A stretch of 64,000 bases of DNA, taken from an uncultured Gammaproteobacteria bacterium. GTDB lineage: Bacteria; Pseudomonadota; Gammaproteobacteria; Steroidobacterales; Steroidobacteraceae. Each line of letters begins with the position of its first letter. Position 1 is the first letter of the stretch. Of the stretch, positions 2,603 through 36,248 are shown one piece after another. The stretch lies in contig CAVZRR010000009.1 in assembly GCA_963777725.1 (NCBI GenBank), positions 13,050-77,049 on the forward strand, in the 5' to 3' direction. The notes below the pieces were generated by a model. It saw only the letters and a list, made by a program, of their open reading frames with translations. It had not been told where the DNA came from and did not search any database. The translations under genes were made by a program, and so were the position numbers.

Positions 2603-3145
2603 ATGAACAAATCATTGATTACCGGGCTCGTCGTCGGCGGCGTGGCAGTGACGGCGGCCGGCGCATTCGCCGGCTACAAGGCACTGGACGAGCAGCGCTA
2701 CGCAGAAGTGCTCAACGTCGAGCCGCTGACCCAGACGGTCCGCACGCCTCGCCAGGTCTGCTCCGACGAGATCGTGACGCACCAGGCGCCCGTGAAGGAC
2801 CCGAAGCGCGTCACCGGCGCCGTGATCGGCGCGGTGGCGGGCGGTGTGCTCGGCAACCAGATCGGCGGCGGGACCGGCCAGACGGTCGCAACGGTCGCGG
2901 GTGCTGCCGCCGGCGGCTATGCCGGCAGCAAGGTCCAGAAGAGCATGCAGGAAGGCAACACGACGCAGACCGTCGAGCAGCGCTGCCGGACGGTCTACGA
3001 CTCGGCCGAAAAGCCCAACGGCTACGAAGTGCGTTATCGCCTCGGCGACCAGGAAGGCACCGTGCGCATGGACCGGGACCCGGGCCAACGGATTCCGGTC
3101 GAGAACGGCCAACTGGTGCTCGCCGACCAGGGTAACCGCCAGTAA
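2603..3145 (+). CDS. ycfJ: YcfJ-like glycine-zipper 2TM domain protein
   Basis: MNKSLITGLVVGG..., then RTPRQVCSDEIVTHQAPVKDPKRVTGAVIGAVAGGVLGNQIGGGTGQTVATVAGAAAGGYAG and TVEQRCRTVYD...YEVRYRLGDQEGTVRMDRDPG. This aligns along its length with E. coli YcfJ as I remember it. GGAGGA lies 7 nt upstream of the ATG. Confidence 0.85.
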   Translation: MNKSLITGLVVGGVAVTAAGAFAGYKALDEQRYAEVLNVEPLTQTVRTPRQVCSDEIVTHQAPVKDPKRVTGAVIGAVAGGVLGNQIGGGTGQTVATVAGAAAGGYAGSKVQKSMQEGNTTQTVEQRCRTVYDSAEKPNGYEVRYRLGDQEGTVRMDRDPGQRIPVENGQLVLADQGNRQ

Positions 3146-3184
3146 CCGCAGTGCTCACCGAGTGAGCTCATAAGGAGAATCGAA

Positions 3185-3334
3185 ATGTTGTGGACAATCG
3201 CTGTCGTATTGGCCGTGCTCTGGCTGCTGGGGCTCGTCAGCTCCTACACCATGGGCGGATTCATTCACATCCTGCTGGTCCTCGCGATCGTCGTGGTCCT
3301 GATCAATGTGATCCAGGGCCGACGGGCCTTGTGA
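3185..3334 (+). CDS. lmo0937-family small membrane protein (49 aa)
   Basis: Below the ORF-track size cut-off. My own translation is MLWTIAVVLAVLWLLGLVSSYTMGGFIHILLVLAIVVVLINVIQGRRAL, which matches the stereotyped two-helix pattern of this family. Confidence 0.7.
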   Translation: MLWTIAVVLAVLWLLGLVSSYTMGGFIHILLVLAIVVVLINVIQGRRAL

Positions 3335-3396
3335 CGAGCTGAAGAGCCCCGTTGCCCTGCCGGCTCACGGCAGGGCAACGTGCGCCAGGAGCAAGC

Positions 3397-3618
3397 ATGA
3401 ACTCAGTGAAGATTACAGCCCTCGTGCTGATCGTGGCCGGGGTCCTCGGACTGGGCTACGGCAGCTTCAGTTTCACGAAGGAAACGCACGACGTGAAGCT
3501 CGGGCCGATCGAGATGTCGGTCAAGGAAAAGGAAACGGTCAACATTCCAGTCTGGGCCGGCGTCGGCGCGATCGCGATCGGTGCCGCGCTGCTGCTGCTG
3601 GGCGGCCGCAAGGCCTAG
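3397..3618 (+). CDS. Small two-TM membrane protein
   Basis: ATG at 3397 (MNSVKITALVLIVAGVLGLGYG...) preceded by AGGAGC. Second TM helix VWAGVGAIAIGAALLLLGG. Confidence 0.6.
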   Translation: MNSVKITALVLIVAGVLGLGYGSFSFTKETHDVKLGPIEMSVKEKETVNIPVWAGVGAIAIGAALLLLGGRKA

Positions 3619-3884
3619 TCGAGCTTCTCGACGACCACGCGGCCTTCTGCATTGACGAAAACCCGATAGCGATTGCCGTCCTCGCATGAGGCGGTGTAGT
3701 CGTCCTCGCCCGCTTGCGTGGCGCTGACGACACGCCCGCACGGCAGGCCCTGCAATGCGATCACCGCCGTCAGGTCCTGGGTCACCGCGACGTCGCTGGC
3801 CACATCCTCCGCCGCGAGCGACGTTCCCGGATACGACACCAACGCTGCAGCGGCCATCGCCAGCGACATTCGGATCTTCTTCAC
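3615..3884 (-). CDS. Small secreted protein, unknown function
   Basis: GTG at 3884 preceded by AGGAGC, overlapping the upstream stop as GTGA. Signal peptide VKKIRMSLAMAAAALVSYPGTSLAA. An alternative ATG start exists at 3869. Confidence 0.55.
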   Translation of the reverse strand: MKKIRMSLAMAAAALVSYPGTSLAAEDVASDVAVTQDLTAVIALQGLPCGRVVSATQAGEDDYTASCEDGNRYRVFVNAEGRVVVEKLD

Positions 3885-4696
3885 GTTGCTGCTCCTGCCA
3901 TCAGATTGGATTCGGTGAACTTCCGGGGATCGGCGAGAATGCCCCAGATCGCGGCGCGTGACTGGACGATGTCCCGCGCCAGGGGCGGATCGCTGTCCTG
4001 CAGCAGCGAGAGCACCTTGAGCAGCAGCATGTCGTAGGAGCGGCGCAACTCGGGCAGCGTCGCCGTTCCCTGCCGCTTGTGGTAAGCGCGAAACTTGCCG
4101 AGCAGGTCGTCCACCTGGTTCTTGAGCGAAAGCTTGGTGAGCGTACCGATGGCCTTGGTCTGCCGGAGCCGCGTGCCGAGCGACGCGAAGTCGAGGGGTG
4201 CTGCGGCAGGCGGAGAGGCGGCCGGCGCCTGGGTCGCCTTCGAGACGACCCTCGGTGCAGCTGTCGGTGCGGGTGCCGGTGTCGTTGCAGGCGTCGGTGC
4301 GACGCACTGACCGGGGGCGCCTTCGTTGTCGCGACAGGAGTCTTCGGGACGACGACGCGCGGAGCAGGCGCGGCGCGCTGCGCCGGAGGCACCGGCTCGA
4401 CGACCGGGGGCGGGACGGCTGGTTCGCGTGCCACCGGAACCTCGGGTGCCACAGGCGTCGGGCGCGGTCACGGTCTCCGGTGGGCTCGCGACAGGCGGCT
4501 GCGGTGCAGGCGCCGAGACTGCAGGCGCAGCCGGCCGGCGACGGCCTCCTCCGCCTGTTTGTGCTTCACCCCCGCACAGCCGGCCGCAACGCAACAGCAC
4601 AGCGCGAGTGCACACAGCGCAGTGGAAGACGTTGCCGGACGATCGATCATCGGGCTCCTCGACGTTGCGCGACGCCAGGGCGGAGAATGCCACCAA
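3881..4696 (-). CDS. Hypothetical protein with a Pro/Ala-rich linker. The N-terminus is unresolved and the gene is possibly a frameshifted lipoprotein.
   Basis: The C-terminal ~105 aa (LDFASLGTRLRQTKAIGTLTKLSLKNQVDDLLGKFRAYHKRQG...) looks like real coding. A lipobox signal peptide (MIDRPATSSTALCALALCCCVAAGCAG, from 4650) lies in a different frame. See finding. Confidence 0.4.
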   Translation of the reverse strand: MVAFSALASRNVEEPDDRSSGNVFHCAVCTRAVLLRCGRLCGGEAQTGGGGRRRPAAPAVSAPAPQPPVASPPETVTAPDACGTRGSGGTRTSRPAPGRRAGASGAARRACSARRRPEDSCRDNEGAPGQCVAPTPATTPAPAPTAAPRVVSKATQAPAASPPAAAPLDFASLGTRLRQTKAIGTLTKLSLKNQVDDLLGKFRAYHKRQGTATLPELRRSYDMLLLKVLSLLQDSDPPLARDIVQSRAAIWGILADPRKFTESNLMAGAAT

Positions 4697-22891: not shown

Positions 22892-22958
22892 AGGTGCCGG
22901 TGGTCGGATCCGTTGGATTTGGCGCTGCCAAATCCGACGGATCCGACCACCGGCACCT
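22892..22958. repeat. 67-nt palindromic hairpin element, copy 1
   Basis: AGGTGCCGGTGGTCGGATCCGTTGGATTTGGC-gct-GCCAAATCCGACGGATCCGACCACCGGCACCT. I paired it by hand into a 32-bp stem with one G-U and a 3-nt loop. It lies between the divergent hydrolase and WS/DGAT genes. Confidence 0.9.
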
Positions 22959-24361: not shown

Positions 24362-24427
24362 AGGTGCCGGTGGTCGGATCCGTCGGATTTGGCAATGCCA
24401 AATCCGACGGATCCGACCACCGGCACC
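24362..24427. repeat. Palindromic hairpin element, copy 2
   Basis: Same sequence as copy 1 except for one stem base and the loop. It forms a perfect 31-bp stem (24363-24427) and starts 8 nt after the WS/DGAT stop. Confidence 0.9.
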
Positions 24428-24484: not shown

Positions 24485-24799
24485 ATGCACGACAAGTCCC
24501 GCGTCTTCGACAACGACCCGCCCTACGGGGCCGCCAGCGACATCGCCGCGGAGCGGCGCCAGCGCATTGCCGCCGAGCTGGCCGCCGTGCAGGAACGCAA
24601 GCAGCGCGATCTTTCACTGCAGACGTCGATGTCGAGCTCGCCCGAAGAGCGCATCAGCCTGTGGGAGCGACGCCACGGCATGAGCCTGCCGCGCGATGCG
24701 GCGCACCCCGTGCTGCCGTTCATCGCCAAGAGCACCGGACTGCTGCTCGAGCAGGTCCTGGACGAGCAGCGCCGCCGGGCCAGCCTCCGCGGCAACTGA
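24485..24799 (+). CDS. Hypothetical protein (104 aa)
   Basis: Track ORF with plausible composition (MHDKSRVFDNDPPYGAASDIAAERRQRIAAELAAVQERKQRD...). Same strand as the SIR2-TIR gene and upstream of it. No recognisable domain. Confidence 0.45.
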   Translation: MHDKSRVFDNDPPYGAASDIAAERRQRIAAELAAVQERKQRDLSLQTSMSSSPEERISLWERRHGMSLPRDAAHPVLPFIAKSTGLLLEQVLDEQRRRASLRGN

Positions 24800-24904
24800 T
24801 CGATCGACGCGTCAGCGCGTCGGCGCGTCAGCGGGCCATCGGGTTCCTGCCGGGAGAGTGCTATTCTCGGCGTGCACAGGGGATGACCGCGCACAAACAG
24901 AACG

Positions 24905-26284
24905 ATGGCCGCGCTACCGCAGCTGCAGAACCTCGATGACGATGCCTGGGACGACCTCCTCAATTACATAGAGGAGCGTCGGGTCATCCCGATCATCGGG
25001 CCCGACCTGCTGCGCGTCGAAACCGAGCGCGGCCCGCGCCTGCTCTACGAGTGGCTCGCCGAGAAACTCGCCGCCCGGCTTGCGGTCGACGTGACCGGGC
25101 TGACCCAACCCCTGACGCTGAACGACGTGGTCTGCTGCTACCTCGGCCAGCGCGGCCGGCGCGAAGAGGTCTACACCCGGCTGCGCTCGATCATGCGCGA
25201 GGTGCAGCTCGCACCCACGATGGCGCTGCGGCAACTGGCGCAGATCACCGACTTCGACCTGTTCGTGACCACGACGTTCGATCCGTTGCTGGAGCAGGCA
25301 CTCAACCTGGAGCGGTTCGGCGGCCAGCCGACGGCAGACGTCATCGCCTATGCGCCGAACCGCGTCGCGGACCTGCCCGCCGAGCGCAGCCAGCTGCAGC
25401 GCCCGGTGGTCTATCACCTGCTGGGACGCCTCTCGGCCTCGCCCACCTACGTCGTCTCCGACGAGGACATGCTCGAATTCATCTGCGCGCTGCAGTCCGA
25501 GCACCTGACGCCGGAGAAGCTTTTCCACGAGCTGGAGCACAACCACCTGCTGCTGATCGGCAGCGATTTCTCGAACTGGCTGGCGCGTCTCTTCCTGCGC
25601 ATGGCGAAGCGCCGCAGGCTTTCGGATCCGCGCGACGTCGGCGAGGTGTTCGCCGACGACCACACGATGAAGGACGAGCGGCTCGTCGCATTCCTGCAGC
25701 AGGTCAGCGTGCGCACGCGCGTCTACTCCGGTGCCGAGGCTTTCGTCGCGGAACTGCACCAACGCTGGCAGCAGCGCCAGACGACCGCGGCGCCCGCGCC
25801 TGTCGCCGGCACCGCGCCGCAGCGCTTCCTGCCGCCGTCACGCGAGATGCCGGAGAACGCGATCTTCATCAGCTACGCGCGTGAGGACCTGCCCGCCGTG
25901 CAGCGTCTCAAGGCCGGTCTCGACGCCGCGGGCCTGACGACCTGGTTCGACCTCGACCGTCTCGAGGGTGGCGACGACTACGACCGCAAGATCCACGCGA
26001 ACATCGCGCGCTGCAGCTTTTTCCTGCCGGTGATCTCGGCGACGACCCAGCGCCGGCTCGAAGCGTATTTCCGGCGCGAGTGGAGCTATGCAGTGGATCG
26101 CTCACGGAACATCGCCGAGGGTGCGGTCTTCATCCTGCCGGTCTGCATCGACGACACCTCGGAGGCGGCGGCCCTGGTGCCTGACAAGTTCAAGTCCGTG
26201 CACATCTCGCGCCTCCCGGATGGCGAGCCGACGCCCGACTTCCTGCGCCGGCTGCAGGATCTCTTCAGCGCACGCCGCGCATGA
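24905..26284 (+). CDS. SIR2-like (SIR2_2-type) domain fused to a C-terminal TIR domain
   Basis: SIR2_2-like blocks: RVIPIIGPDLL, FDLFVTTTFDPLLEQAL, VVYHLLGRLSASPTYVVSDEDMLEF, NHLLLIGSDFSNWLARLFL. TIR: AIFISYAREDLPAVQRLKAGLDAAGLTTWFDLDRLEGGDDYDRKI...FFLPVIS...FRREWSYA. Confidence 0.75.
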   Translation: MAALPQLQNLDDDAWDDLLNYIEERRVIPIIGPDLLRVETERGPRLLYEWLAEKLAARLAVDVTGLTQPLTLNDVVCCYLGQRGRREEVYTRLRSIMREVQLAPTMALRQLAQITDFDLFVTTTFDPLLEQALNLERFGGQPTADVIAYAPNRVADLPAERSQLQRPVVYHLLGRLSASPTYVVSDEDMLEFICALQSEHLTPEKLFHELEHNHLLLIGSDFSNWLARLFLRMAKRRRLSDPRDVGEVFADDHTMKDERLVAFLQQVSVRTRVYSGAEAFVAELHQRWQQRQTTAAPAPVAGTAPQRFLPPSREMPENAIFISYAREDLPAVQRLKAGLDAAGLTTWFDLDRLEGGDDYDRKIHANIARCSFFLPVISATTQRRLEAYFRREWSYAVDRSRNIAEGAVFILPVCIDDTSEAAALVPDKFKSVHISRLPDGEPTPDFLRRLQDLFSARRA

Positions 26285-29200
26285 AACCAACGCCACCCGA
26301 CCTGTCGGCCTCGGTCACGATCGACCCGGAAAATCCGTGGCTCGGTCTGTCGTCGTACTCCGAGGAGACCCGCGCGTATTTCCACGGCCGGGACGAGGAA
26401 GCGGCCGAGCTCGCTCGTCGCGTGCAGCGCAAGCTCCTCACCGTGCTGTTCGGCCAGTCCGGGCTCGGCAAGACTTCGCTGCTGCGGGCCGGCCTCGTGC
26501 CGCGGCTGCGCGGCGAGGGCTTCTGCCCGATATACGTGCGCGTGGACTACTCGCCCGAGTCGCCGCCGCCGTCGGAGCAGATCAAGCAGGCGATCTTCAG
26601 GGCCACCGCCGCAGCCGGCCACTGGTCCCGGCCCGGGTCGGCGATCGAGGGTGAATCGTTGTGGGAGTTCCTGCATCACCGCGGCGATCTGCTGCGCGAT
26701 GCGGCCGGCCGCACGCTGCTGCCCCTGCTGATCTTCGACCAGTTCGAGGAGATCTTCACGCTGGCGCAGGCGGATGACGCTGGTCGGCAGCGCGCGAAGG
26801 CATTTCTCGAGGACCTCGCGGATCTCGTCGAGAACCGCCCGCCGGCGGATCTCGAGCGACGGCTCGAGCACGACGAGGCCGACGCCGGGCACTACGACTT
26901 CTCGCGCGCCGACTACCGGATCCTGATCGCACTTCGCGAGGACTACCTCGCCCACCTCGAGAGCGTGAAAGGCATCATGCCCTCGATCACGCAGAACCGC
27001 ATGCGACTGGCGCGCATGAGCGGCGCGCAGGCGTTGAGCGCCGTGGTCAAGCCGGGCGGGCGGCTCGTATCGCAGGAAGTGGCCGAGTCGATCGTCCGCT
27101 TCGTTGCCGGTGGCTCGGAACTCACGAATGCCGAGGTCGAGCCATCGTTGCTGAGCCTCGTGTGCCGCGAGTTGAACACCGTGCGCCTGAACCAAAGTCG
27201 CGCGGAAATCTCGGCCGACCTGCTGGCGGGTTCGCGAGACACGATCCTCACGGAGTTCTATGAGCGGGCGCTCGCCGACCAGCCGGCCGGCGTGCGACGG
27301 GTGATCGAGGACGAGTTGCTGACGGAGTCCGGCTATCGCGAAAGCCTGGCCGAAGAACGCGTGACGAAGGCTCTCGCCGCGGCCGGTGCGGCGCCGGACG
27401 CGCTCGCGAAGCTGGTAGACCGTCGCCTGCTGCGCATCGAGGAACGGCTCGACATGCGCCGCGTGGAACTCACGCACGACGTGCTGTGCAGCGTCGTGCG
27501 CGGCAGCCGCGACCTGCGCCACGAACGCGAGGCCCGCGACGAGGCCGAACGCCAGCTCGCCGCGCAGCAGGCGCGCGAGGCGGAGACGCATCGCACGCTC
27601 GTCCGCACGCGCAAGGTGGCGCTCGTCAGCGCGGTGCTGATGCTGGTGGCCGTCGCCAGCGCCGTGTTCGGCTGGGTCAATTACCGCCGGGCGCACCAGG
27701 CGGACCTCGCGGCGCAGCAGGCGCGCGCCGACGCGGAAAAGCTCGTCGGGTTCCTGATCGAAGATTTCTACGCCGAGCTCGAGCCGACCGGGCGACTGGA
27801 AACCATGGGCAAGCTCGCGCACCTGGCCGTGAGCTATTACGACGGGCTGCCGCCAGAGCTCCGGACGCCCCAGACGCAGCTCTACCGTGGCATGGCGCTG
27901 GTGCGCGAAGGCGGCGCGCTGCTCGCCCGGGGCGACGTCGAGGCCGCCAACCCGAAGCTCGACGAGGCTCGGGCGCTGTTCGAGGCATTGCGGGCGGCGG
28001 ACGCCAGCAACGAACAGGCCACGATCGGCCTCGCACTGACGCTTTTCGCTCGGTTCTCGAGTTGGGGTCCCGCCGGCGCGCCGGGCGGCAAGGAAGGCGA
28101 CCTGCAGCTGGCTGCGGACCTGCTGCGGCCCCTCGTCCAGGAAGCGACGGGTTCGCGCCAGGCGAAAGTCGTCTATGCGGACGTGCTGAATTTCCTCAGC
28201 CACCAGCAGACGAAGGAAATGGGCATCGCCACCTGCGAGGAGGCGCGCAAGGTCCTCGTCGGCCTGGGCGCGCTCGACTTCACCGACCTGAACGCCGCGT
28301 CGATCTACGCCGACACCAGCGACTCGCAGGCCCGTCACGCCCTGGCGCTCGGCAGGCTGGAGGAGTCCGAACGGCTCACGCACGAGGTCTACGCGATCGC
28401 CGAAAAGGTGCTGGCGCAGCGCCCGGGGGACTTCCGATCCATGCGCAATCGCGCGCTGGCGGCCGACCTCCTCGGCCAACTGGCCATGCGCCGCCACGAC
28501 TATGTCGCCGCCGCGGAGTACGCGGCACGAACCGAACTGGCCGGCCAGAACTATGTGCAGTTCAACCCGTCGGACCTGAGTGCCTGGGACTACTGGATCC
28601 GCGGCAAGGACCAGGTGTCCGATACGCTGTTCGAGCGCGGCCGCGTGCTCGAGTCGATCGACGTGCTGCGCGCCGCCGTGGCGCTGGAGAAGGACGCCCG
28701 CCTGCCATCCAGCCTCAGTCCGCAGCTCAACTGGACGTGGGCCGAGCTCGCAGGACAGGAAGCCCGGTCCGGGCAACGAGCCAATGCGGAGAAGTCGCTG
28801 CGGGAAGCGATTCGTGCGAACGACGAATTGTTGAAGGTCTCCGGCAATACCGGCCAATGGCGCGAACTGCTGCCGCTGATGCCCGATGCGTGGCGGCAGC
28901 GGTTGGACCTGTATTTCGGGGACTACCCGGCCGCGCTCGAGGGCTCCGCAGCAAATGCACGTCGCCTGGGTGGGCTGCAGTTGCCGGCGGATGACGAGAA
29001 CGCCCAACGGATTCGTGCCAATCTGCTGCGTTTCACGCTCGGCACCGCAGCAATGGCGGCCCTGCGACTTGGCCGCGACGCCGAAGCCGAGAGCGCGCTG
29101 CGGGAGCGGCTGACCCTGCCGCCCAACCCGTTCTCCGGAGCCGATCCGCAGGATGAGGTGTCGCGCTCCCAGGTGATGCTGGCCCACGCCGTCACACGGC

Positions 29201-29481
29201 AGGGTCGTAGCGCCGAGGCGCGCGAGATCCTGCAGCCCGCACTGCAGCGCTATCGCGCCGCACAAACGCAAGGCGCCAGCGGCATCACGTTCCAGCGTGA
29301 TCTCGCCTATGCCCTTTATGCCAACGCAATCGCGCAGGACGGCGACCGCGAGGGCCGGGAGCAACGGGAAGCGTCGCTGGCGGAGGCCGCGAAACTGCTG
29401 TCGAACCTGCCGGCGGAGGCGCAGCAGATCTGGGACATACGCGTGGTGGCCGACCTGGTCGACGCCGCCCGGGGCAGTTGA
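26281..29481 (+). CDS. STAND-type P-loop NTPase with one TM helix and a ~600-aa TPR-like C-terminal region
   Basis: The ATG overlaps the upstream stop (GCATGA). NPWLGLSSYSEETRAYFHGRDEEAAEL, Walker A LFGQSGLGKTSLLRAGLVP, Walker B LLIFDQFEEIF. TM helix VALVSAVLMLVAVASAVFGWVNY flanked by RTRK and RRAH. Helical-repeat tail. Confidence 0.75.
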   Translation: MKPTPPDLSASVTIDPENPWLGLSSYSEETRAYFHGRDEEAAELARRVQRKLLTVLFGQSGLGKTSLLRAGLVPRLRGEGFCPIYVRVDYSPESPPPSEQIKQAIFRATAAAGHWSRPGSAIEGESLWEFLHHRGDLLRDAAGRTLLPLLIFDQFEEIFTLAQADDAGRQRAKAFLEDLADLVENRPPADLERRLEHDEADAGHYDFSRADYRILIALREDYLAHLESVKGIMPSITQNRMRLARMSGAQALSAVVKPGGRLVSQEVAESIVRFVAGGSELTNAEVEPSLLSLVCRELNTVRLNQSRAEISADLLAGSRDTILTEFYERALADQPAGVRRVIEDELLTESGYRESLAEERVTKALAAAGAAPDALAKLVDRRLLRIEERLDMRRVELTHDVLCSVVRGSRDLRHEREARDEAERQLAAQQAREAETHRTLVRTRKVALVSAVLMLVAVASAVFGWVNYRRAHQADLAAQQARADAEKLVGFLIEDFYAELEPTGRLETMGKLAHLAVSYYDGLPPELRTPQTQLYRGMALVREGGALLARGDVEAANPKLDEARALFEALRAADASNEQATIGLALTLFARFSSWGPAGAPGGKEGDLQLAADLLRPLVQEATGSRQAKVVYADVLNFLSHQQTKEMGIATCEEARKVLVGLGALDFTDLNAASIYADTSDSQARHALALGRLEESERLTHEVYAIAEKVLAQRPGDFRSMRNRALAADLLGQLAMRRHDYVAAAEYAARTELAGQNYVQFNPSDLSAWDYWIRGKDQVSDTLFERGRVLESIDVLRAAVALEKDARLPSSLSPQLNWTWAELAGQEARSGQRANAEKSLREAIRANDELLKVSGNTGQWRELLPLMPDAWRQRLDLYFGDYPAALEGSAANARRLGGLQLPADDENAQRIRANLLRFTLGTAAMAALRLGRDAEAESALRERLTLPPNPFSGADPQDEVSRSQVMLAHAVTRQGRSAEAREILQPALQRYRAAQTQGASGITFQRDLAYALYANAIAQDGDREGREQREASLAEAAKLLSNLPAEAQQIWDIRVVADLVDAARGS

Positions 29482-29502
29482 CGAACCTGCGGAGCAAGGA
29501 CG

Positions 29503-30678
29503 ATGTCTGACCGAGCACCGATCCCACGTGACCCGGACAACGACTACACGCCGGAAATGGCCGAGCGCCGGGCCGAGTTCCTGCGCGAGAAGACCGGCAC
29601 GACGCTGAACCACGTGCGGCGCGCGTCGTTCGACCCGGCCGTGCTGCCCGGCAACATCGAGAATTTCATCGGCGTCGCGCAGGTGCCGATCGGCCTGGCG
29701 GGGCCGCTGCGCATCAATGGCGAGCACGCCCAGGGCGACTTCTACGTGCCGCTCGCGACCACGGAAGGCACGCTGGTCGCGAGCTACAGCCGCGGCATGC
29801 GGGTGGTGTCCGAGTGCGGCGGCGTCACGGCGACCGTCGTCAAGCGTTCGATGCAACGCGCGCCCGTGTTCATGTTCGGCACCGCGCGCGAGGCGCGCGA
29901 TTTCGGCGAGTGGCTGACCCAGCGCTTCGACGACGTGAAGCAGGCCGCGGAAGCGACCACGCGCAGCGGGCGGCTGGTCGAGATCGAGCAGTACGCGATC
30001 GGCAACCTGCTCTACCTGCGCTTCAACTACACGACGGGCGACGCGGCCGGCCAGAACATGACGGGCAAGGCCACGCATGCCGCCTGCGAGTGGATCCACG
30101 CGACGCACCCGTCGCGGCCGAAGTACATGCTGTCCGGCAGCATCGACACCGACAAGAAGCACTCGGCGATCAACACGCTGCGCACGCGCGGCCGCCGCGT
30201 GGTCGCCGAGGCCGTGATCAAGAACGACGTGCTGCAGCGACTGATGCGCGTGGACACGCGCACGCTGTTCAAGGCGCGGCAGGTGTCGAACGCCGGGGCG
30301 TTGCTCGCCGGCACGGCCTACAACGGGCCACACGCGGCGAACGGCATCACGGCGATGTTCATCGCCACGGGACAGGACGTCGCCAACGTCGCGGAGTCGC
30401 ACGCGGGCATCACCTACGCGCAGCTGCTCGACAACGGCGACTACTACTGGTCCGTGACGCTGACCTCGCTGATCGTCGCGACCTACGGCGGCGGCACCGG
30501 CCTGCCGACGCAGCGCGAGTGCCTCGAGCTGCTCGACTGCTACGGCAATGGCAAGGCCGACAAGCTCGCCGAGATCGTCGCGGCCGTGGTGCTCGCGGGC
30601 GACATCTCGCTCGGCAGCGCCGTGCTCGCCGGCGACTGGGTGACGAGCCACGAGAAGCTGGGCCGCAACCGGCCCTGA
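29503..30678 (+). CDS. Class I hydroxymethylglutaryl-CoA reductase (soluble catalytic domain)
   Basis: ENFIGVAQVPIGLAGPL, PLATTEGTLVASYSRG, TGDAAGQNM, ATYGGGTGLPTQRECLELL. These are class-I HMGR signature blocks from memory. Starts 21 nt after the STAND gene stop. Confidence 0.8.
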   Translation: MSDRAPIPRDPDNDYTPEMAERRAEFLREKTGTTLNHVRRASFDPAVLPGNIENFIGVAQVPIGLAGPLRINGEHAQGDFYVPLATTEGTLVASYSRGMRVVSECGGVTATVVKRSMQRAPVFMFGTAREARDFGEWLTQRFDDVKQAAEATTRSGRLVEIEQYAIGNLLYLRFNYTTGDAAGQNMTGKATHAACEWIHATHPSRPKYMLSGSIDTDKKHSAINTLRTRGRRVVAEAVIKNDVLQRLMRVDTRTLFKARQVSNAGALLAGTAYNGPHAANGITAMFIATGQDVANVAESHAGITYAQLLDNGDYYWSVTLTSLIVATYGGGTGLPTQRECLELLDCYGNGKADKLAEIVAAVVLAGDISLGSAVLAGDWVTSHEKLGRNRP

Positions 30679-33375: not shown

Positions 33376-35394
33376 TCAAACCGTTGCAACCGCGGCGGGC
33401 GGCCAGAAGAAGTCGCGCGGCCGGCTCAGGAACCGGCGCAGCACCCGCGCCCAGAGCCCGCGCGTCTGCTCGGGCGTGATGCCACGCGAGCGCAGCGCGA
33501 CCTTCAGCGCGAGCCAGAAGCTGACGACCAGGTTGACCAGGCCGATCAGCAGCACGCCCGCGAAGCTGACCACGACGGTCGACACCGGCACCGCGAACTC
33601 GAGCGCGTTCAAGCCGTAGGCGAAGTTGGCGCTCGAGAAGGCGACGTGACGGATGTCGAGCGGCAGTCCGAGCAGCTCACCCGCGATCGGCGTGCAGCCC
33701 AGCATGCAGCCGAACAGGAAGTTACCCGCCAGCGCGCCGAGATTGTGCTCGACGTAGTCGGCAAGCCGCCCGAGCCGTTCGTCCCCAAGCAGTCGGCGCA
33801 ACGACTTCACGCGGCGCAGTCGCTCGGGCACGCGGTGGTACAGCGACTGGTTGTCGTAATAGCCCGAGATGAGTCCGCTCAGGAAAAGATAGACGCCGGC
33901 GATCGCCGCGTGCAGCAGCGCGAGGCTGCGCCACGGATGCAGGTCGTGCAGCAGGTGCGCCGCCTTGTCCGGCCCCACCGGATCCCAGCCGAGGAACCGG
34001 CCCGCCGTCATCGCGATCGCAAACGCAGCGAGCAGGCAGATCGTCACGTTGCCCGCGATCGAGATCCACTGCGTGCGGCTTACCTCGGCCGCGAGGTCCG
34101 CCAGCACGTCCAGCCGCGCCTCGCGATTGTCCCGGCCGTCGAGTTCCGCGGCGAGCGTCGCGGCGGTCATCGCCGGTTGCTTGGTGGCGATGGTCAGGTG
34201 CAGCACGTGGATCAGCACGAAGCCGACGCCGTAGTTGAGGCTGAACGCGACCGCCTCCCAGACGGGGGGCAGGTCGAGCTTCGCGGTCAGGATCTTGACC
34301 AGCGCCATCGCGGCGATGATCAGTCCGGCCCCGGCCGCGGCGCGGTACATGGCGAAGTATTCGCCGCGGGACGCGGTGATGTAGTGCTCGCCGGAGTGGC
34401 TCGCCTGCTCCGTGACGCGCCGCGCGAGCAGTTCAGTGGTGCCGCGGAACAGGTCGCGGATGCTGTTGCGGCGATTCTCCTGCCGGACCAGGCGCAGGAA
34501 GAACTCGAGCTCGCGACTGTGCGCCACGCCGGCCGCGCCGGGTGCAGACGGCACGAGCAGCTCACGCAGCTCGCGCAGCCGCGCGAGGATCTGCTCGATC
34601 CGCGCCAGCAGGAAGACGAGGTTGACGCCGACGCCCGCCTCCCGGGAACGGCGGCGCAGCGTGTCCACGTACTCGTCGCACTGGCAGAGCAGCACCTCGA
34701 GGTGCCCGTCGTCGGGAGACGACGGCAAGGTCTCGGCATGGTGCTCGATGAAGCCACGCACCTCGGCCATCTGGGCGAGGAACGGCGATTCGTGGCGCGC
34801 CAGCGCGGGCAGGTACTGCAGCAGCGCGGTGTCGGTGCCGAGCGCCGCGAGCCGCACGGAATCGAGCCGCATTGCCTCGAGGGCCTCGTGGCGGCATTTG
34901 CGCCGCGCCGGCGCAAAGTCGTCGCCATCCACGCCGATCGCGTCGAGCAATGCGGCCCAGTCCGCGCGCGGCACGGCGAACATCCAGCGGTGATCCTCGG
35001 GGTGGTCGAACACCTCGACGACCAGGTCGCGCAGGTATTCGGTGTCCACCGCGGGGGGCAACAGTCGCCCGAGCAGGCGCCGGACCAGCCCGCTCATGAA
35101 ACCCGGGTTGGTCAGGATGCCGGACTCCGCATAGAGAATGCGGTGCATCCGTGACGTGAGCAGGCCGCCGAGATGGGCGTTCAGGGCCGCTGCGAATTCG
35201 GGTCGGGCGCGCAGGACGCCGATCAACGAGCGCAAGTGCTCGCTGGCGGCCGCGAGGCTGTCGCGACCGCGGGGACGGATCTCGGCGACCAGCCGCGCGA
35301 GCCACTCGCCGGAAGTGACGGGCGGGCGGTCCTGGAGTTCCTGCAGCAGGCGGGCGAAGGCCTCCGTGCGATCGTCAGTCGCGCTGGGATTCAT
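33376..35394 (-). CDS. Gcr-type 'site-specific recombinase' family (PF10136-like) multi-TM protein
   Basis: Long helical N-terminal half and multi-TM C-terminal half (AAAGAGLIIAAMALVKIL ..., GVLLIGLVNLVVSFWLAL). The family name is from memory of the annotation label only. Confidence 0.55.
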   Translation of the reverse strand: MNPSATDDRTEAFARLLQELQDRPPVTSGEWLARLVAEIRPRGRDSLAAASEHLRSLIGVLRARPEFAAALNAHLGGLLTSRMHRILYAESGILTNPGFMSGLVRRLLGRLLPPAVDTEYLRDLVVEVFDHPEDHRWMFAVPRADWAALLDAIGVDGDDFAPARRKCRHEALEAMRLDSVRLAALGTDTALLQYLPALARHESPFLAQMAEVRGFIEHHAETLPSSPDDGHLEVLLCQCDEYVDTLRRRSREAGVGVNLVFLLARIEQILARLRELRELLVPSAPGAAGVAHSRELEFFLRLVRQENRRNSIRDLFRGTTELLARRVTEQASHSGEHYITASRGEYFAMYRAAAGAGLIIAAMALVKILTAKLDLPPVWEAVAFSLNYGVGFVLIHVLHLTIATKQPAMTAATLAAELDGRDNREARLDVLADLAAEVSRTQWISIAGNVTICLLAAFAIAMTAGRFLGWDPVGPDKAAHLLHDLHPWRSLALLHAAIAGVYLFLSGLISGYYDNQSLYHRVPERLRRVKSLRRLLGDERLGRLADYVEHNLGALAGNFLFGCMLGCTPIAGELLGLPLDIRHVAFSSANFAYGLNALEFAVPVSTVVVSFAGVLLIGLVNLVVSFWLALKVALRSRGITPEQTRGLWARVLRRFLSRPRDFFWPPAAVATV

Positions 35395-35536: not shown

Positions 35537-35842
35537 ATGACCGACCATGTCACCACCCAGACCCTCAAGGACGACCTGTCGACCGTATTGCGGGATGCGG
35601 AGGCGCTGATCAAGGCGTCGGCCGAGCACGGCGGTGAGAAGACCGCCGAGGCCCGGGCGAAGATCCGCGAATCGCTCGATGCCGCCAAGCGGCGGCTGAT
35701 GGAAGCCGAGCGGGCTGCGGTCCGTCACGGGGAAGACGCCGTGCATGCGACCGAGGATTACGCGCGACGCAACCCCTGGCAGGCCATGGGCATTGCCGCG
35801 GGCGTGGGCCTCGTGCTGGGCGTGCTGCTGGCCCGGCGCTGA
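35537..35842 (+). CDS. ElaB/YqjD/DUF883-family membrane-anchored protein
   Basis: AGGAGGA upstream of the ATG. ...ATEDYARRNPWQAMGIAAGVGLVLGVLLARR is the typical C-terminal anchor. Confidence 0.85.
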   Translation: MTDHVTTQTLKDDLSTVLRDAEALIKASAEHGGEKTAEARAKIRESLDAAKRRLMEAERAAVRHGEDAVHATEDYARRNPWQAMGIAAGVGLVLGVLLARR

Positions 35843-35849
35843 GCCGCCA

Positions 35850-36248
35850 ATGAGCCTCGACACTCCGGCGCCCGGCCCGGCGGGCAACCTGCTGCGCTCC
35901 CTGGTTCGGCTGGGCGGCAGCGTGCTCGCGGCGGCCGAGACCCGCTTCGACCTGCTCGCGACCGAGCTGAACGAGGACGCCACGCGCGGCGTGCGCCTGC
36001 TGGCTTTCGCGCTCGCCGCGCTGTTCACCGGCTTGTTGGGCGCGTTGATGGCTGGGGCGACTGTCGTCATCGTGTTCTGGGACACGCACCGGGTCGCGGC
36101 GGCCCTGGCCGTCACGGCGATCTTCTTCGGCGCAGCGATCTTCTGCGCGCTGGTGGTCCGTCAGCGGCTGCGCCAGAAACCGCGCTTGCTGGACGCGACG
36201 CGCAGCGAGCTGAAGAAGGACTTGGCGGCGATCCGCTCGCACCAATGA
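35850..36248 (+). CDS. YqjE-like (DUF1469 / 'phage holin family') membrane protein
   Basis: RFDLLATELNEDATRG, then two TM helices. Second gene of the yqjD-yqjE-yqjK-type operon. Confidence 0.75.
   Translation: MSLDTPAPGPAGNLLRSLVRLGGSVLAAAETRFDLLATELNEDATRGVRLLAFALAALFTGLLGALMAGATVVIVFWDTHRVAAALAVTAIFFGAAIFCALVVRQRLRQKPRLLDATRSELKKDLAAIRSHQ

Follow-up and report, generated by a model that had tools for sequence, protein, structure and literature searches.

What does a pair of overlapping genes do, one of which encodes a protein with a SIR2-like and a TIR domain and the other a STAND-type NTPase with a long repeat tail? The question is raised by a locus in a 64,000-nucleotide stretch of DNA from an uncultured gammaproteobacterium (contig CAVZRR010000009.1), which is designated the window. 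An earlier note on this DNA had suggested that the two genes form an NAD-targeting defense module, in which one protein carries two different NADase-type domains and the partner carries a STAND switch. In the present analysis, the two genes are found to be one conserved functional unit and to constitute an accessory, self-contained, and horizontally mobile cassette. Within the first protein, the TIR domain alone looks catalytic, and the second is predicted to cross the membrane once, with its NTPase in the cytoplasm and its sensor outside it. The reading that we favor, and to which we would give an even chance of being correct, is that the cassette encodes a transmembrane NLR-like (STAND) receptor which activates a TIR NADase, i.e., a two-gene mobile conflict module serving as a cell-suicide or defense switch acting on NAD+. 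Its parts are as follows, all on the forward (+) strand:

24803..24904, +, leader region with the 5' end of the cassette, delimited by comparing junctions between occupied and empty sites
24905..26284, +, gene 1 (g1), encoding a 459-aa SIR2-like and TIR protein predicted to be cytoplasmic (open reading frame, Pfam)
26281..26284, +, ATGA stop/start overlap coupling translation of g1 and g2 (sequence gcATGAaa)
26281..29481, +, gene 2 (g2), encoding a 1066-aa protein with nSTAND1 NTPase, transmembrane helix, and TPR-like solenoid, predicted to be single-pass (open reading frame, Pfam)
29482..29502, +, 3' boundary of the cassette, 21 nt from the g2 stop codon to the ATG of an HMG-CoA (3-hydroxy-3-methylglutaryl-CoA) reductase gene, from occupied and empty junctions

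Both open reading frames (ORFs) of the earlier note were recovered where it had placed them, together with every sequence block that it had quoted, and its statements that the stop codon of g1 overlaps the ATG of g2 and that the genes are translationally coupled are borne out by the ATGA. The G+C content at third codon positions (GC3) is of the coding type in both genes (0.89 for g1 and 0.86 for g2, at a genomic GC content of about 68%). The domain calls (SIR2_2, TIR, and STAND) likewise hold, as the Pfam profiles SIR2_2, TIR_2, and nSTAND1 all gave matches above their cutoffs, and no meaningful model match was obtained for g1 or g2 in NCBIfam.

That the pair is a functional unit, as the earlier note had assumed, is evident from its distribution. 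Homologs are numerous (4318 word-indexed for g1 and 3914 for g2), and the relatives of g1 fall into 1464 clusters (50% identity, E<1e-30), nearly all of about 460 aa with full-length SIR2-like and TIR parts; a relative is encoded in 497 species-representative genomes. The close loci studied here are the best 80 of these 497 genomes, with g1 proteins 81-88% identical to that of the window; they belong to the Lysobacterales (Xanthomonadales), including Rudaea, Rhodanobacter, Dokdonella, Cognatiluteimonas, Pseudoxanthomonas, and Chiayiivirga, besides metagenome-assembled genomes (MAGs) labeled as Steroidobacteraceae. A g2 homolog is located directly 3' of g1 in 79 of the 80 loci, the single exception being a contig edge, and an nSTAND1 gene immediately follows in all nine distant members inspected (47-76% identity; Beta- and Gammaproteobacteria, Verrucomicrobiota such as Opitutus, and unclassified metagenome contigs), mostly with a 4-nt overlap, which is also present in L081, L084, L169, and L170. 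None of the other genes of the window occurs within ±10 kb of the cassette in any of the 80 loci. One relative (P0338) is a natural single-chain fusion in the order nSTAND1, SIR2_2, and TIR_2, and other relatives have a caspase or an additional TIR domain fused ahead of the SIR2-like and TIR parts. Since these two parts are kept together in fusions to nSTAND1, caspase, and TIR domains, they represent a single evolutionary module. The sensor parts of the distant partners consist either of TPR repeats (proteins of 853 or 1071 aa) or of WD40 beta-propellers (632-1350 aa), and at one locus (L171:4814-13229) two full SIR2-TIR plus nSTAND1-WD40 cassettes are arranged in tandem; a small gene of the 23S_rRNA_IVP family interrupts the gene pair of the first of these.

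The two domains of the g1 protein are located as follows:

24932..25789, +, SIR2-like domain, aa ~10-295 (AlphaFold2 model, Foldseek, profile alignment to ThsA)
25841..26239, +, TIR domain, aa ~313-445 (Pfam TIR_2, profile matches, invariant E392)

The TIR domain is matched by Pfam TIR_2 over aa 320-429 (E=3.8e-17, 63.4 bits, cutoff 28), and a profile of the family matches the TIR-APAZ protein of SPARTA (E=7e-12), PdTIR, AbTIR, and TcpB (down to 2e-9), and also SARM1. Residue columns, here and for the SIR2-like domain, were counted over 70 g1 family members of 37-51% identity. Glutamate E392, which is part of the FRREW motif (codon 26078-26080), is invariant in all 70 and corresponds to the glutamate of KEL in the TIR-APAZ protein of SPARTA, which is residue 77 as counted from the alignment; E77A is the catalytic mutant of that system. 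The ratio of nonsynonymous to synonymous substitution rates (dN/dS) ranges from 0.03 to 0.09 over the whole g1 protein, and the TIR domain, at about 0.03, has the lowest value of all parts of the cassette. Judged from these residues and matches, the TIR domain is the probable catalytic part, i.e., a putative NAD+-cleaving or signal-generating unit.

The SIR2-like domain presents a different picture. Pfam SIR2_2 is matched over aa 119-242 (E=1.1e-11, 45.4 bits, cutoff 24.5), and the AlphaFold2 model of g1 has a mean predicted local distance difference test score (pLDDT) of 79.6, with about 90 over aa 10-220. Foldseek searches with this model retrieve the antiphage sirtuins ThsA, KomC, Avs5 (structures 9jap and 9nc9), and DSR2 at a probability of 1.00, which is why the SIR2 fold call can be regarded as right; the match to ThsA has an E value of 5.6e-11, the target-normalized TM-score to KomC is 0.64-0.69, and ThsA is the top match of this half of g1 in both the structural and the profile comparison. 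For residue assignment, 24 diverse members of the family were combined into a profile, which was aligned to ThsA of B. cereus (6LHX, E=1.9e-5) and of S. equi (SeThsA, 7UXT); SeThsA residue numbers were corrected for the tag of chain 7uxt_B, which shifts them by 24. The family motif vTTTFD aligns with TTNYD of ThsA, which reads TTAYD in entry 8BTO, taken to be an engineered Asn-to-Ala mutant, and the K(M/L)HG motif of ThsA and SeThsA aligns with h-L-l-G of the family, so that the catalytic histidine falls just before the invariant glycine. N113 and H153 of SeThsA are named as catalytic in the Thoeris filament preprint, and mutation of the equivalent asparagine inactivates ThsA. The canonical asparagine (ThsA N112, SeThsA N113) is replaced by T124 in g1 (codon 25274-25276; 54 T, 6 S, and 5 N in the 70 members) and the canonical histidine (ThsA H152, SeThsA H153) by L173 (codon 25421-25423; 32 L, 30 F, and 8 M). 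Across the family the GAGxS loop is absent, with an N-terminal G-x-(E/D)-L in its place. The earlier note had singled out the histidine of VYHLLG, which is H171, for mutation; this residue aligns with K150 of ThsA, two residues off the canonical position, and is histidine in only 45 of the 70 members (15 Q, 3 R, 2 Y), and it is thereby ruled out as the sirtuin catalytic histidine.

Two NADase-type domains on one protein, as the earlier note had put it, are thus not upheld, because the SIR2-like half has neither catalytic residue and no GAGxS loop. A version of that idea can be retained if residues other than the canonical ones confer activity on the domain, such as H171 or the acidic residues D126, D156, E187, D188, and E191, which are invariant or nearly so. 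The SIR2_2 match above cutoff, the resemblance of the fold to active defense sirtuins, the purifying selection on the domain (dN/dS about 0.09), and the NAD processing reported for non-canonical sirtuins such as FAM118 (PMC12700824) would all agree with a second NADase. Nevertheless, Thr or Ser occupies the Asn position in 60 of 70 members and Leu, Phe, or Met the His position in all of them, H171 is replaced by Gln in 15, and G-x-(E/D)-L stands where the loop should be, in a fold in which loss of the equivalent Asn inactivates ThsA; we therefore consider activity of this kind quite unlikely. The domain is degenerate yet functional, as seen from its dN/dS, its residue columns, and its fold, and is probably a non-canonical, non-catalytic SIR2-fold module that would serve as a scaffold or ligand binder.

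The product of g2 is likewise modular, and its parts are encoded as follows:

26335..27576, +, nSTAND1 NTPase module, aa 19-432 (Pfam; invariant motifs; dN/dS 0.04-0.06)
26452-26478, +, Walker A motif GQSGLGKTS, aa 58-66, with K64, invariant in 64 homologs
26725-26751, +, Walker B motif LLIFDQFEE, aa 149-157, with D153 and E156/E157, invariant in 64 homologs
27616..27684, +, transmembrane helix, aa 446-468, VALVSAVLMLVAVASAVFGWVNY (hydrophobicity and charge bias; predicted N-in/C-out)
27778..29478, +, C-terminal TPR-like alpha-solenoid, aa ~500-1066 (AlphaFold2, Foldseek, entropy, dN/dS)

The NTPase is matched by Pfam nSTAND1 (PF20703) over profile positions 1-370 of 379 (E=8.9e-34, 118.2 bits, cutoff 27.1), TPR_12 and TPR_10 are matched below threshold, and no match to g2 was found in a sequence search of the PDB. 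From about residue 500 to 1066 the AlphaFold2 model shows approximately 14 helical hairpins of a TPR-like solenoid at pLDDT 90-98, for which Foldseek returned generic TPR scaffolds only, among them domain III of MalT, the sensor domain of that STAND protein. Along the entropy gradient of g2, variability is highest in the solenoid, whose dN/dS of 0.22 compares with about 0.05 for the NTPase; it is the fastest-evolving part of the protein and its predicted extracytoplasmic sensor. The earlier note had described a STAND core and a long helical-repeat tail, both of which are present, and had missed the transmembrane helix between them. This segment has a Kyte-Doolittle hydrophobicity of 2.54 in the 19-residue window at aa 446-464, all other segments of the protein being at or below 1.2, and the same peak is found at aa 444-454 in 121 of 121 close homologs (median 2.41) and in five of five distant partners of both the TPR and the WD40 type (1.95-2.82). 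Its position and hydrophobicity are kept across homologs while its sequence varies. The flank on its N-terminal side carries a mean of 5.4 Lys plus Arg residues versus 2.6 on the C-terminal side, and is the more positive one in 106 of the 121 homologs; from this positive-inside bias, the NTPase is predicted to be cytoplasmic and the C-terminal domain extracytoplasmic. In the model, a long helix (374-436) is followed by a second one, which passes through the membrane segment and extends into a juxtamembrane region that is conserved (451-500).

To our knowledge, the characterized bacterial STAND or NLR-like immune sensors (Avs1-5 and later, bNACHT) are cytosolic and bind phage proteins. Were the hydrophobic segment not membrane-spanning, the g2 protein could be cytosolic as well and sense a phage protein as Avs proteins do, and it fits this possibility that g2 has no signal peptide and that the natural fusion P0338 has no transmembrane helix. 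Against it stand a hydrophobicity of 1.95-2.8 over 19-21 residues, far above the usual threshold of 1.6, the retention of the segment in position rather than in sequence across TPR and WD40 partners, the positive-inside charge bias, and the long flanking helices of the model, which together make a cytosolic g2 the least probable of the alternatives considered here. The Avs-like switch which the earlier note had in mind is accordingly an analogy that stands for the nSTAND1 NTPase with its repeats and is incomplete as a parallel to the cytosolic Avs sensors, because g2 is predicted to span the membrane.

The accessory status of the cassette was established from a comparison of occupied and empty sites in 80 metagenomic loci anchored on the gene at the 3' side of the cassette in the window, HMG-CoA reductase. 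Among loci in which this reductase is 96-98% identical to that of the window, three carry the cassette (L087, L090, and L132) and four do not (L086, L088, L089, and L091); at the latter, the upstream small ORF is followed by about 80 nt and then by the reductase gene. Occupied and empty sites are homologous to just past the stop codon of the small ORF (24799) and again from the ribosome-binding site of the reductase gene, which defines an indel of about 4.7 kb (about 24803-29490) containing essentially just g1 and g2. Reductase relatives of 70-90% identity never bear the cassette, and some of them retain the order abhydrolase, WS/DGAT (wax ester synthase/diacylglycerol acyltransferase), HMG-CoA reductase. 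Because occupied and empty sites coexist among near-identical loci and no 70-90% relative is occupied, the cassette is a recent gain in the lineage of the window. Together with the occurrence of g1 proteins of 76-77% identity in Opitutus and Lacunisphaera (Verrucomicrobiota), this recent gain shows horizontal mobility. The earlier note had named a strictly conserved core-genome locus as the outcome that would speak against a defense module; presence and absence are patchy instead, as shown by the empty sites in genomes with 96-98% identical reductases. No integrase, target-site duplication, or terminal repeats were seen at the boundaries of the indel, and GC content and GC3 of the cassette equal those of the flanks, so that no compositional island is apparent.

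The leader contains an extended -10-like element (TGCTATTCT, 24859-24867), which resembles an element 5' of the reductase gene at empty sites; a scan of the 5' region of the cassette gave no consensus sigma-70 promoter. A terminator scan between g2 and the reductase gene was also negative, and this gene, located 21 nt 3' of g2, is therefore probably co-transcribed with the cassette in the strains that carry it. At one empty site (L091:4370-4440), the ribosome-binding site and start region of the reductase gene is present as a tandem duplication of about 40 nt with two copies of AGGAACGACGATGTCCGATCGCG. The reductase itself (29503-30678, +) is of the class-I type (NADPH; Pfam E=9e-126) with more than 416 metagenome relatives, and no other gene of the mevalonate pathway is evident beside it in the window. 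It was considered and rejected as a part of the module, since it never adjoins the cassette elsewhere and its 70-90% identical relatives are without cassette. The 104-aa ORF upstream (24485-24799, +; GC3 0.91, no family match, 94-100% conserved in close relatives) was rejected as a third component, as none of the 80 related loci has it and it occurs at empty and occupied sites alike. Two perfect palindromes of about 53 bp at 22899-22951 and 24369-24421 (GGTGGTCGGATCCGTCGGATTTGG, a short loop, and the reverse complement) bracket the WS/DGAT gene; zero chance matches are expected for such a sequence, which looks like an intergenic element of the repetitive extragenic palindromic (REP) type. A gene of the PF10136 "site-specific recombinase" family (33376-35394, -; E=1e-220) and one for a Phage_holin_3_6-like membrane protein (35745-36248, +) are located 4-6 kb 3' of the cassette, and the former is not linked to the cassette, as it also occurs in empty-site relatives.

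The neighborhood of the cassette in other genomes was analyzed with respect to defense and mobility functions. The 127 nearest genes of about 70 loci are mostly housekeeping genes, encoding M20 peptidase, UvrB, pilins/GspH, acyl-CoA ligase, ThrC, ComM, and DnaG. A conserved third gene or a mobility gene was not found in the flanks, where clusters are common to at most 14 of 80 loci and are of the housekeeping type. Matches of PADLOC models to neighboring genes (DpdF, PsyrT, PbeA, mREase_IV, and RtcR) were read as helicase or AAA cross-hits because their member counts match those of the UvrB and ComM neighbors. In one sub-lineage of the Lysobacterales, a gene for a 195-aa protein with an N-terminal transmembrane segment and a nuclease-related (NERD) domain (L001:9271-9858; about 12 loci, including L002, L003, L005, L007, L018, and L064) is located immediately 5' of g1, between thrC and the cassette.

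Several of these results weigh against a defense function or against the receptor model. A defense-island context was not found among the 127 nearest neighbors, with about two loci showing plausible MADS genes. Where flanking genes are shared, the median identity of g1 equals or exceeds that of housekeeping proteins (90% vs 81% for UvrB, 92% vs 89% for ThrC, and 85% vs 85% for PriA), which is atypical of defense effectors; the g2 proteins of the same genomes are less similar (68-80%). The cassette was not found in phage genomes, viral contigs, or plasmids, the sole match on a replicon of this kind being distant (33%) and located on a Paraburkholderia megareplicon. In PADLOC-DB v2, the TIR part of g1 alone was recognized and g2 gave no match at E<=0.1, and the NTPase part of the AlphaFold2 model of g2 is poor (pLDDT 30-70). 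The housekeeping flanks and the high conservation of g1 therefore leave room for a non-immune signaling role, and the case for a defense module, which the accessory and patchy occurrence supports, is weaker than the earlier note implied.

Such a role could be that of an envelope-signaling module, in which g2 monitors the state of the envelope or of pili and physiology is regulated, without cell death, by a nucleotide second messenger from the TIR domain. Besides the core-like conservation of g1 with its very low dN/dS and the flanks devoid of defense islands, a sensor outside the cytoplasm, as predicted here, would be typical of signal transduction, and the genomic association with pilins points in the same direction. 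In three independent loci of the WD40 branch (L081:13303-16074, L169:11447-13413, and L170:10233-12328), the STAND gene is coupled by ATGA or GTGA to a type IV pilin gene whose product has the classic GFTxIELM N-terminus, followed by a gene of about 200 aa and a T2SSF/PilC-like gene; L081 has a second pilin gene after the latter. In about seven loci of the Lysobacterales (L053:14727-15281, L062:14804-15433, L074:14709-15260, and about four more), a gene for a GspH/FimT-like minor pilin is located immediately 3' of the cassette on the same strand, with uvrB on the other side, a placement that may reflect one ancestral insertion or an echo of the pilin linkage of the WD40 branch. On the other hand, presence and absence in near-identical genomes and transfer between phyla are hallmarks of accessory conflict genes, and sensor swaps, tandem duplication, and fusions to caspase or extra TIR domains are typical of conflict systems; moreover, every one of the nearest relatives by structure is an antiphage NADase, and the linkage to pilins, seen in only three of nine distant loci, is absent from the window. 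On balance, purely physiological signaling appears unlikely to us, though less so than the other alternatives.

Other distant loci have further neighbors. In an Opitutus MAG (L084, 3158-7864 and 15551-17404), the cassette, with a g1 of 76% identity, is found amid three separate TIR_2-TPR genes, and a similar TIR-TPR gene is located 3' of the cassette on the contig of P0462. On the contig of P0413 (JGI 3300056388), a SLATT-domain gene encoding a predicted membrane effector (2735-4225 of the locus) directly precedes the cassette. An ankyrin-repeat gene is found 5' of SIR2-TIR in L081 and L170, with a caspase-FGE gene farther 5' in L170. The pilin, TIR-TPR, SLATT, and caspase-FGE neighbors and the tandem arrangement fit a conflict system with an envelope sensor, and none of them is universal.

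According to the transmembrane-receptor model that we favor, an extracytoplasmic ligand, which might be a protein derived from a phage, a competitor, or the envelope, would bind to the repeat domain, and the signal would cross the membrane via the transmembrane and juxtamembrane helix. The nSTAND1 NTPase would then oligomerize in a nucleotide-dependent manner, the g1 protein would be recruited and clustered, and TIR-TIR assembly would form composite active sites, with depletion of NAD+ and/or formation of a signal of the cyclic ADP-ribose (cADPR) type as the consequence and growth arrest or abortive infection as the putative outcome. The SIR2-like domain would contribute as a non-catalytic scaffold, an oligomerization module, or a nucleotide-binding or -reading module. 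Counted in favor of a receptor are the conserved NTPase combined with variable repeats, the exchange of TPR for WD40 sensors on the same NTPase, and the tandem cassettes, while the coupling to genes for envelope proteins, pilin and T2SSF, in the WD40 branch is counted in favor of the membrane topology. As precedent for a defense role, the closest folds are the antiphage NADases ThsA, DSR2, and the SIR2-STAND protein Avs5. The anatomy of the cassette, the coupling of its genes, the transmembrane helix, the state of the catalytic residues, the accessory occurrence, and the purifying selection are results of the present analysis, and the topology, the ligand, the oligomerization, the NADase activity, and the defense role are inferred.

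The last step could also be organized as an intramolecular relay similar to Thoeris, in which the TIR domain makes a cADPR-type signal and a degenerate SIR2-like pocket, on the same chain or on that of a neighbor, senses it, which leads to filaments or engages a separate downstream effector. The closest SIR2 folds (ThsA, KomC, and Avs5) are filament formers, the SIR2-like and TIR domains always travel together, even in fusions to caspase, TIR, or nSTAND1, and the SLATT, caspase-FGE, and TIR-TPR genes beside some cassettes are possible extra effectors. This proposal is, however, purely inferential: Pfam revealed neither SLOG nor Macro nor any further domain known to bind cADPR, the minimal cassette of the window has no further effector gene, and neighboring effector genes are not conserved between loci. 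We regard such a relay as improbable, slightly more so than a second NADase activity of the SIR2-like domain.

A broader proposition, which we put forward tentatively and with clearly less confidence than the receptor model itself, is that the cassette represents the first bacterial NLR-like family that spans the membrane, with a cytoplasmic STAND module, one transmembrane helix, a diversifying periplasmic TPR or WD40 sensor, and a TIR output acting via a SIR2-like pseudo-enzyme as assembly or nucleotide-reading module. Infection or attack would be sensed prior to or during its passage across the envelope, and the sensor of one branch may act in conjunction with a dedicated pilin/PilC-like apparatus. 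If true, an extracytoplasmic STAND sensor would extend bacterial pattern recognition to the envelope, and the layout of repeats, transmembrane helix, and TIR signaling would be conceptually nearer to Toll-like receptors than to cytosolic NLRs. The family is large and widely transferred, with at least 1464 clusters in about 500 species-level genomes of Gamma- and Betaproteobacteria and Verrucomicrobiota, and would probably be missed by screens that rely on fused effectors or defense islands. It further provides a route to the study of SIR2-fold pseudo-enzymes in which the catalytic dyad was lost and the domain strictly kept beside a TIR domain, and the cassette, being self-contained and only 4.6 kb in size, can easily be tested.

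How does the cassette relate to systems already described? The nSTAND1 clade was named, and conflict systems were predicted for it, by Kaur, Burroughs, Iyer, and Aravind (eLife 2021, PMC8195603). The cassette shares with these systems the NTPase clade (PF20703) and the combination of a STAND protein with a variable effector (TIR, caspase, or others) and repeat sensors, and differs in having a separate SIR2-like and TIR partner gene in place of fused effectors or recruitment by EAD (effector-associated domain) or Death-like adaptors. In the literature searched, the coverage of which is incomplete, neither the pairing of a SIR2-like and TIR protein with nSTAND1 nor the transmembrane helix or the cassette is described in works that mention nSTAND1, and the terms SIR2-TIR and TIR-SIR2 do not occur; in the text of Kaur et al. 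2020, neither "SIR2" nor "nSTAND" is found. The novelty that the earlier note had surmised for the two-gene split thus stands to the extent that no named system or paper was found, its two NADase domains excepted, and the cassette is apparently undescribed. A systematic STAND survey of 2026 scored clades by fused effectors or defense neighborhood, and by either of these the cassette would fail. For targets of diversity-generating retroelements (DGR), a side remark in the literature predicts periplasmic STAND sensors. In the DdvA-DdvS system, DdvA is a single-pass anti-sigma factor with a very large periplasmic TPR-CHAT sensor which controls CBASS and CRISPR, and a phage-associated signal has been proposed; DdvA resembles g2 as a single-pass protein with a large periplasmic sensor containing TPRs and is a precedent for sensing in the periplasm by such a protein, but its output is the release of an extracytoplasmic function (ECF) sigma factor by regulated proteolysis, and there is no sequence relationship between the two.

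The antiphage systems with NAD-directed domains are the nearest in composition. Avs5 (AVAST type 5) likewise combines a defense-type SIR2 fold, a STAND NTPase, and a helical-repeat sensor, and oligomerization-driven activation of the effector is presumably common to both. All parts of Avs5, including an active SIR2 domain at its N-terminus, are on a single chain, whereas the effector of the cassette is encoded by a separate, coupled gene, the catalytic Asn and His are missing from its SIR2-like domain, it has a TIR domain in addition, and a transmembrane helix is located between NTPase and sensor. The NTPase is of the nSTAND1 clade, and none of the Avs models of PADLOC recognizes it. Type I Thoeris also uses one SIR2-fold and one TIR domain together, but as separate proteins, ThsA (SIR2-SLOG) and ThsB (TIR), with the SIR2 domain (N112/H152) as the NADase effector, which the TIR product activates via SLOG. 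In the cassette, the SIR2-like and TIR domains are on one chain with an obligatory STAND partner and without the catalytic dyad, no SLOG or Macro domain was detected by Pfam in g1 or its neighbors, and the ThsB model of PADLOC matches g1 only at E=0.011 and on the TIR domain. SPARTA TIR-APAZ, AbTIR, PdTIR, and TcpB are the closest TIR sequences and the catalytic Glu (SPARTA E77) is kept; the PADLOC Aga_TIR models match the TIR part of g1 only, no Argonaute or APAZ family, as is characteristic of SPARTA and SPARSA, was found in g1, g2, or the flanking genes, and activation would be brought about by the STAND NTPase, not by guide/target-induced tetramerization. The animal SIR2-like proteins SAMD9/SAMD9L and FAM118, which are linked to STAND or filament immunity, offer a parallel in the association of a SIR2-like domain with a STAND-type NTPase and TPR-like repeats in an antiviral protein, and non-canonical sirtuin chemistry or structural roles are reported; being eukaryotic, single-chain, and cytosolic and having no TIR domain, they are an architectural analogy only. 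The cassette would work like the Avs/NLR type of STAND system equipped with the NAD-directed domains of Thoeris, SPARTA, and Avs5, and it departs from the defining features of each of these four.

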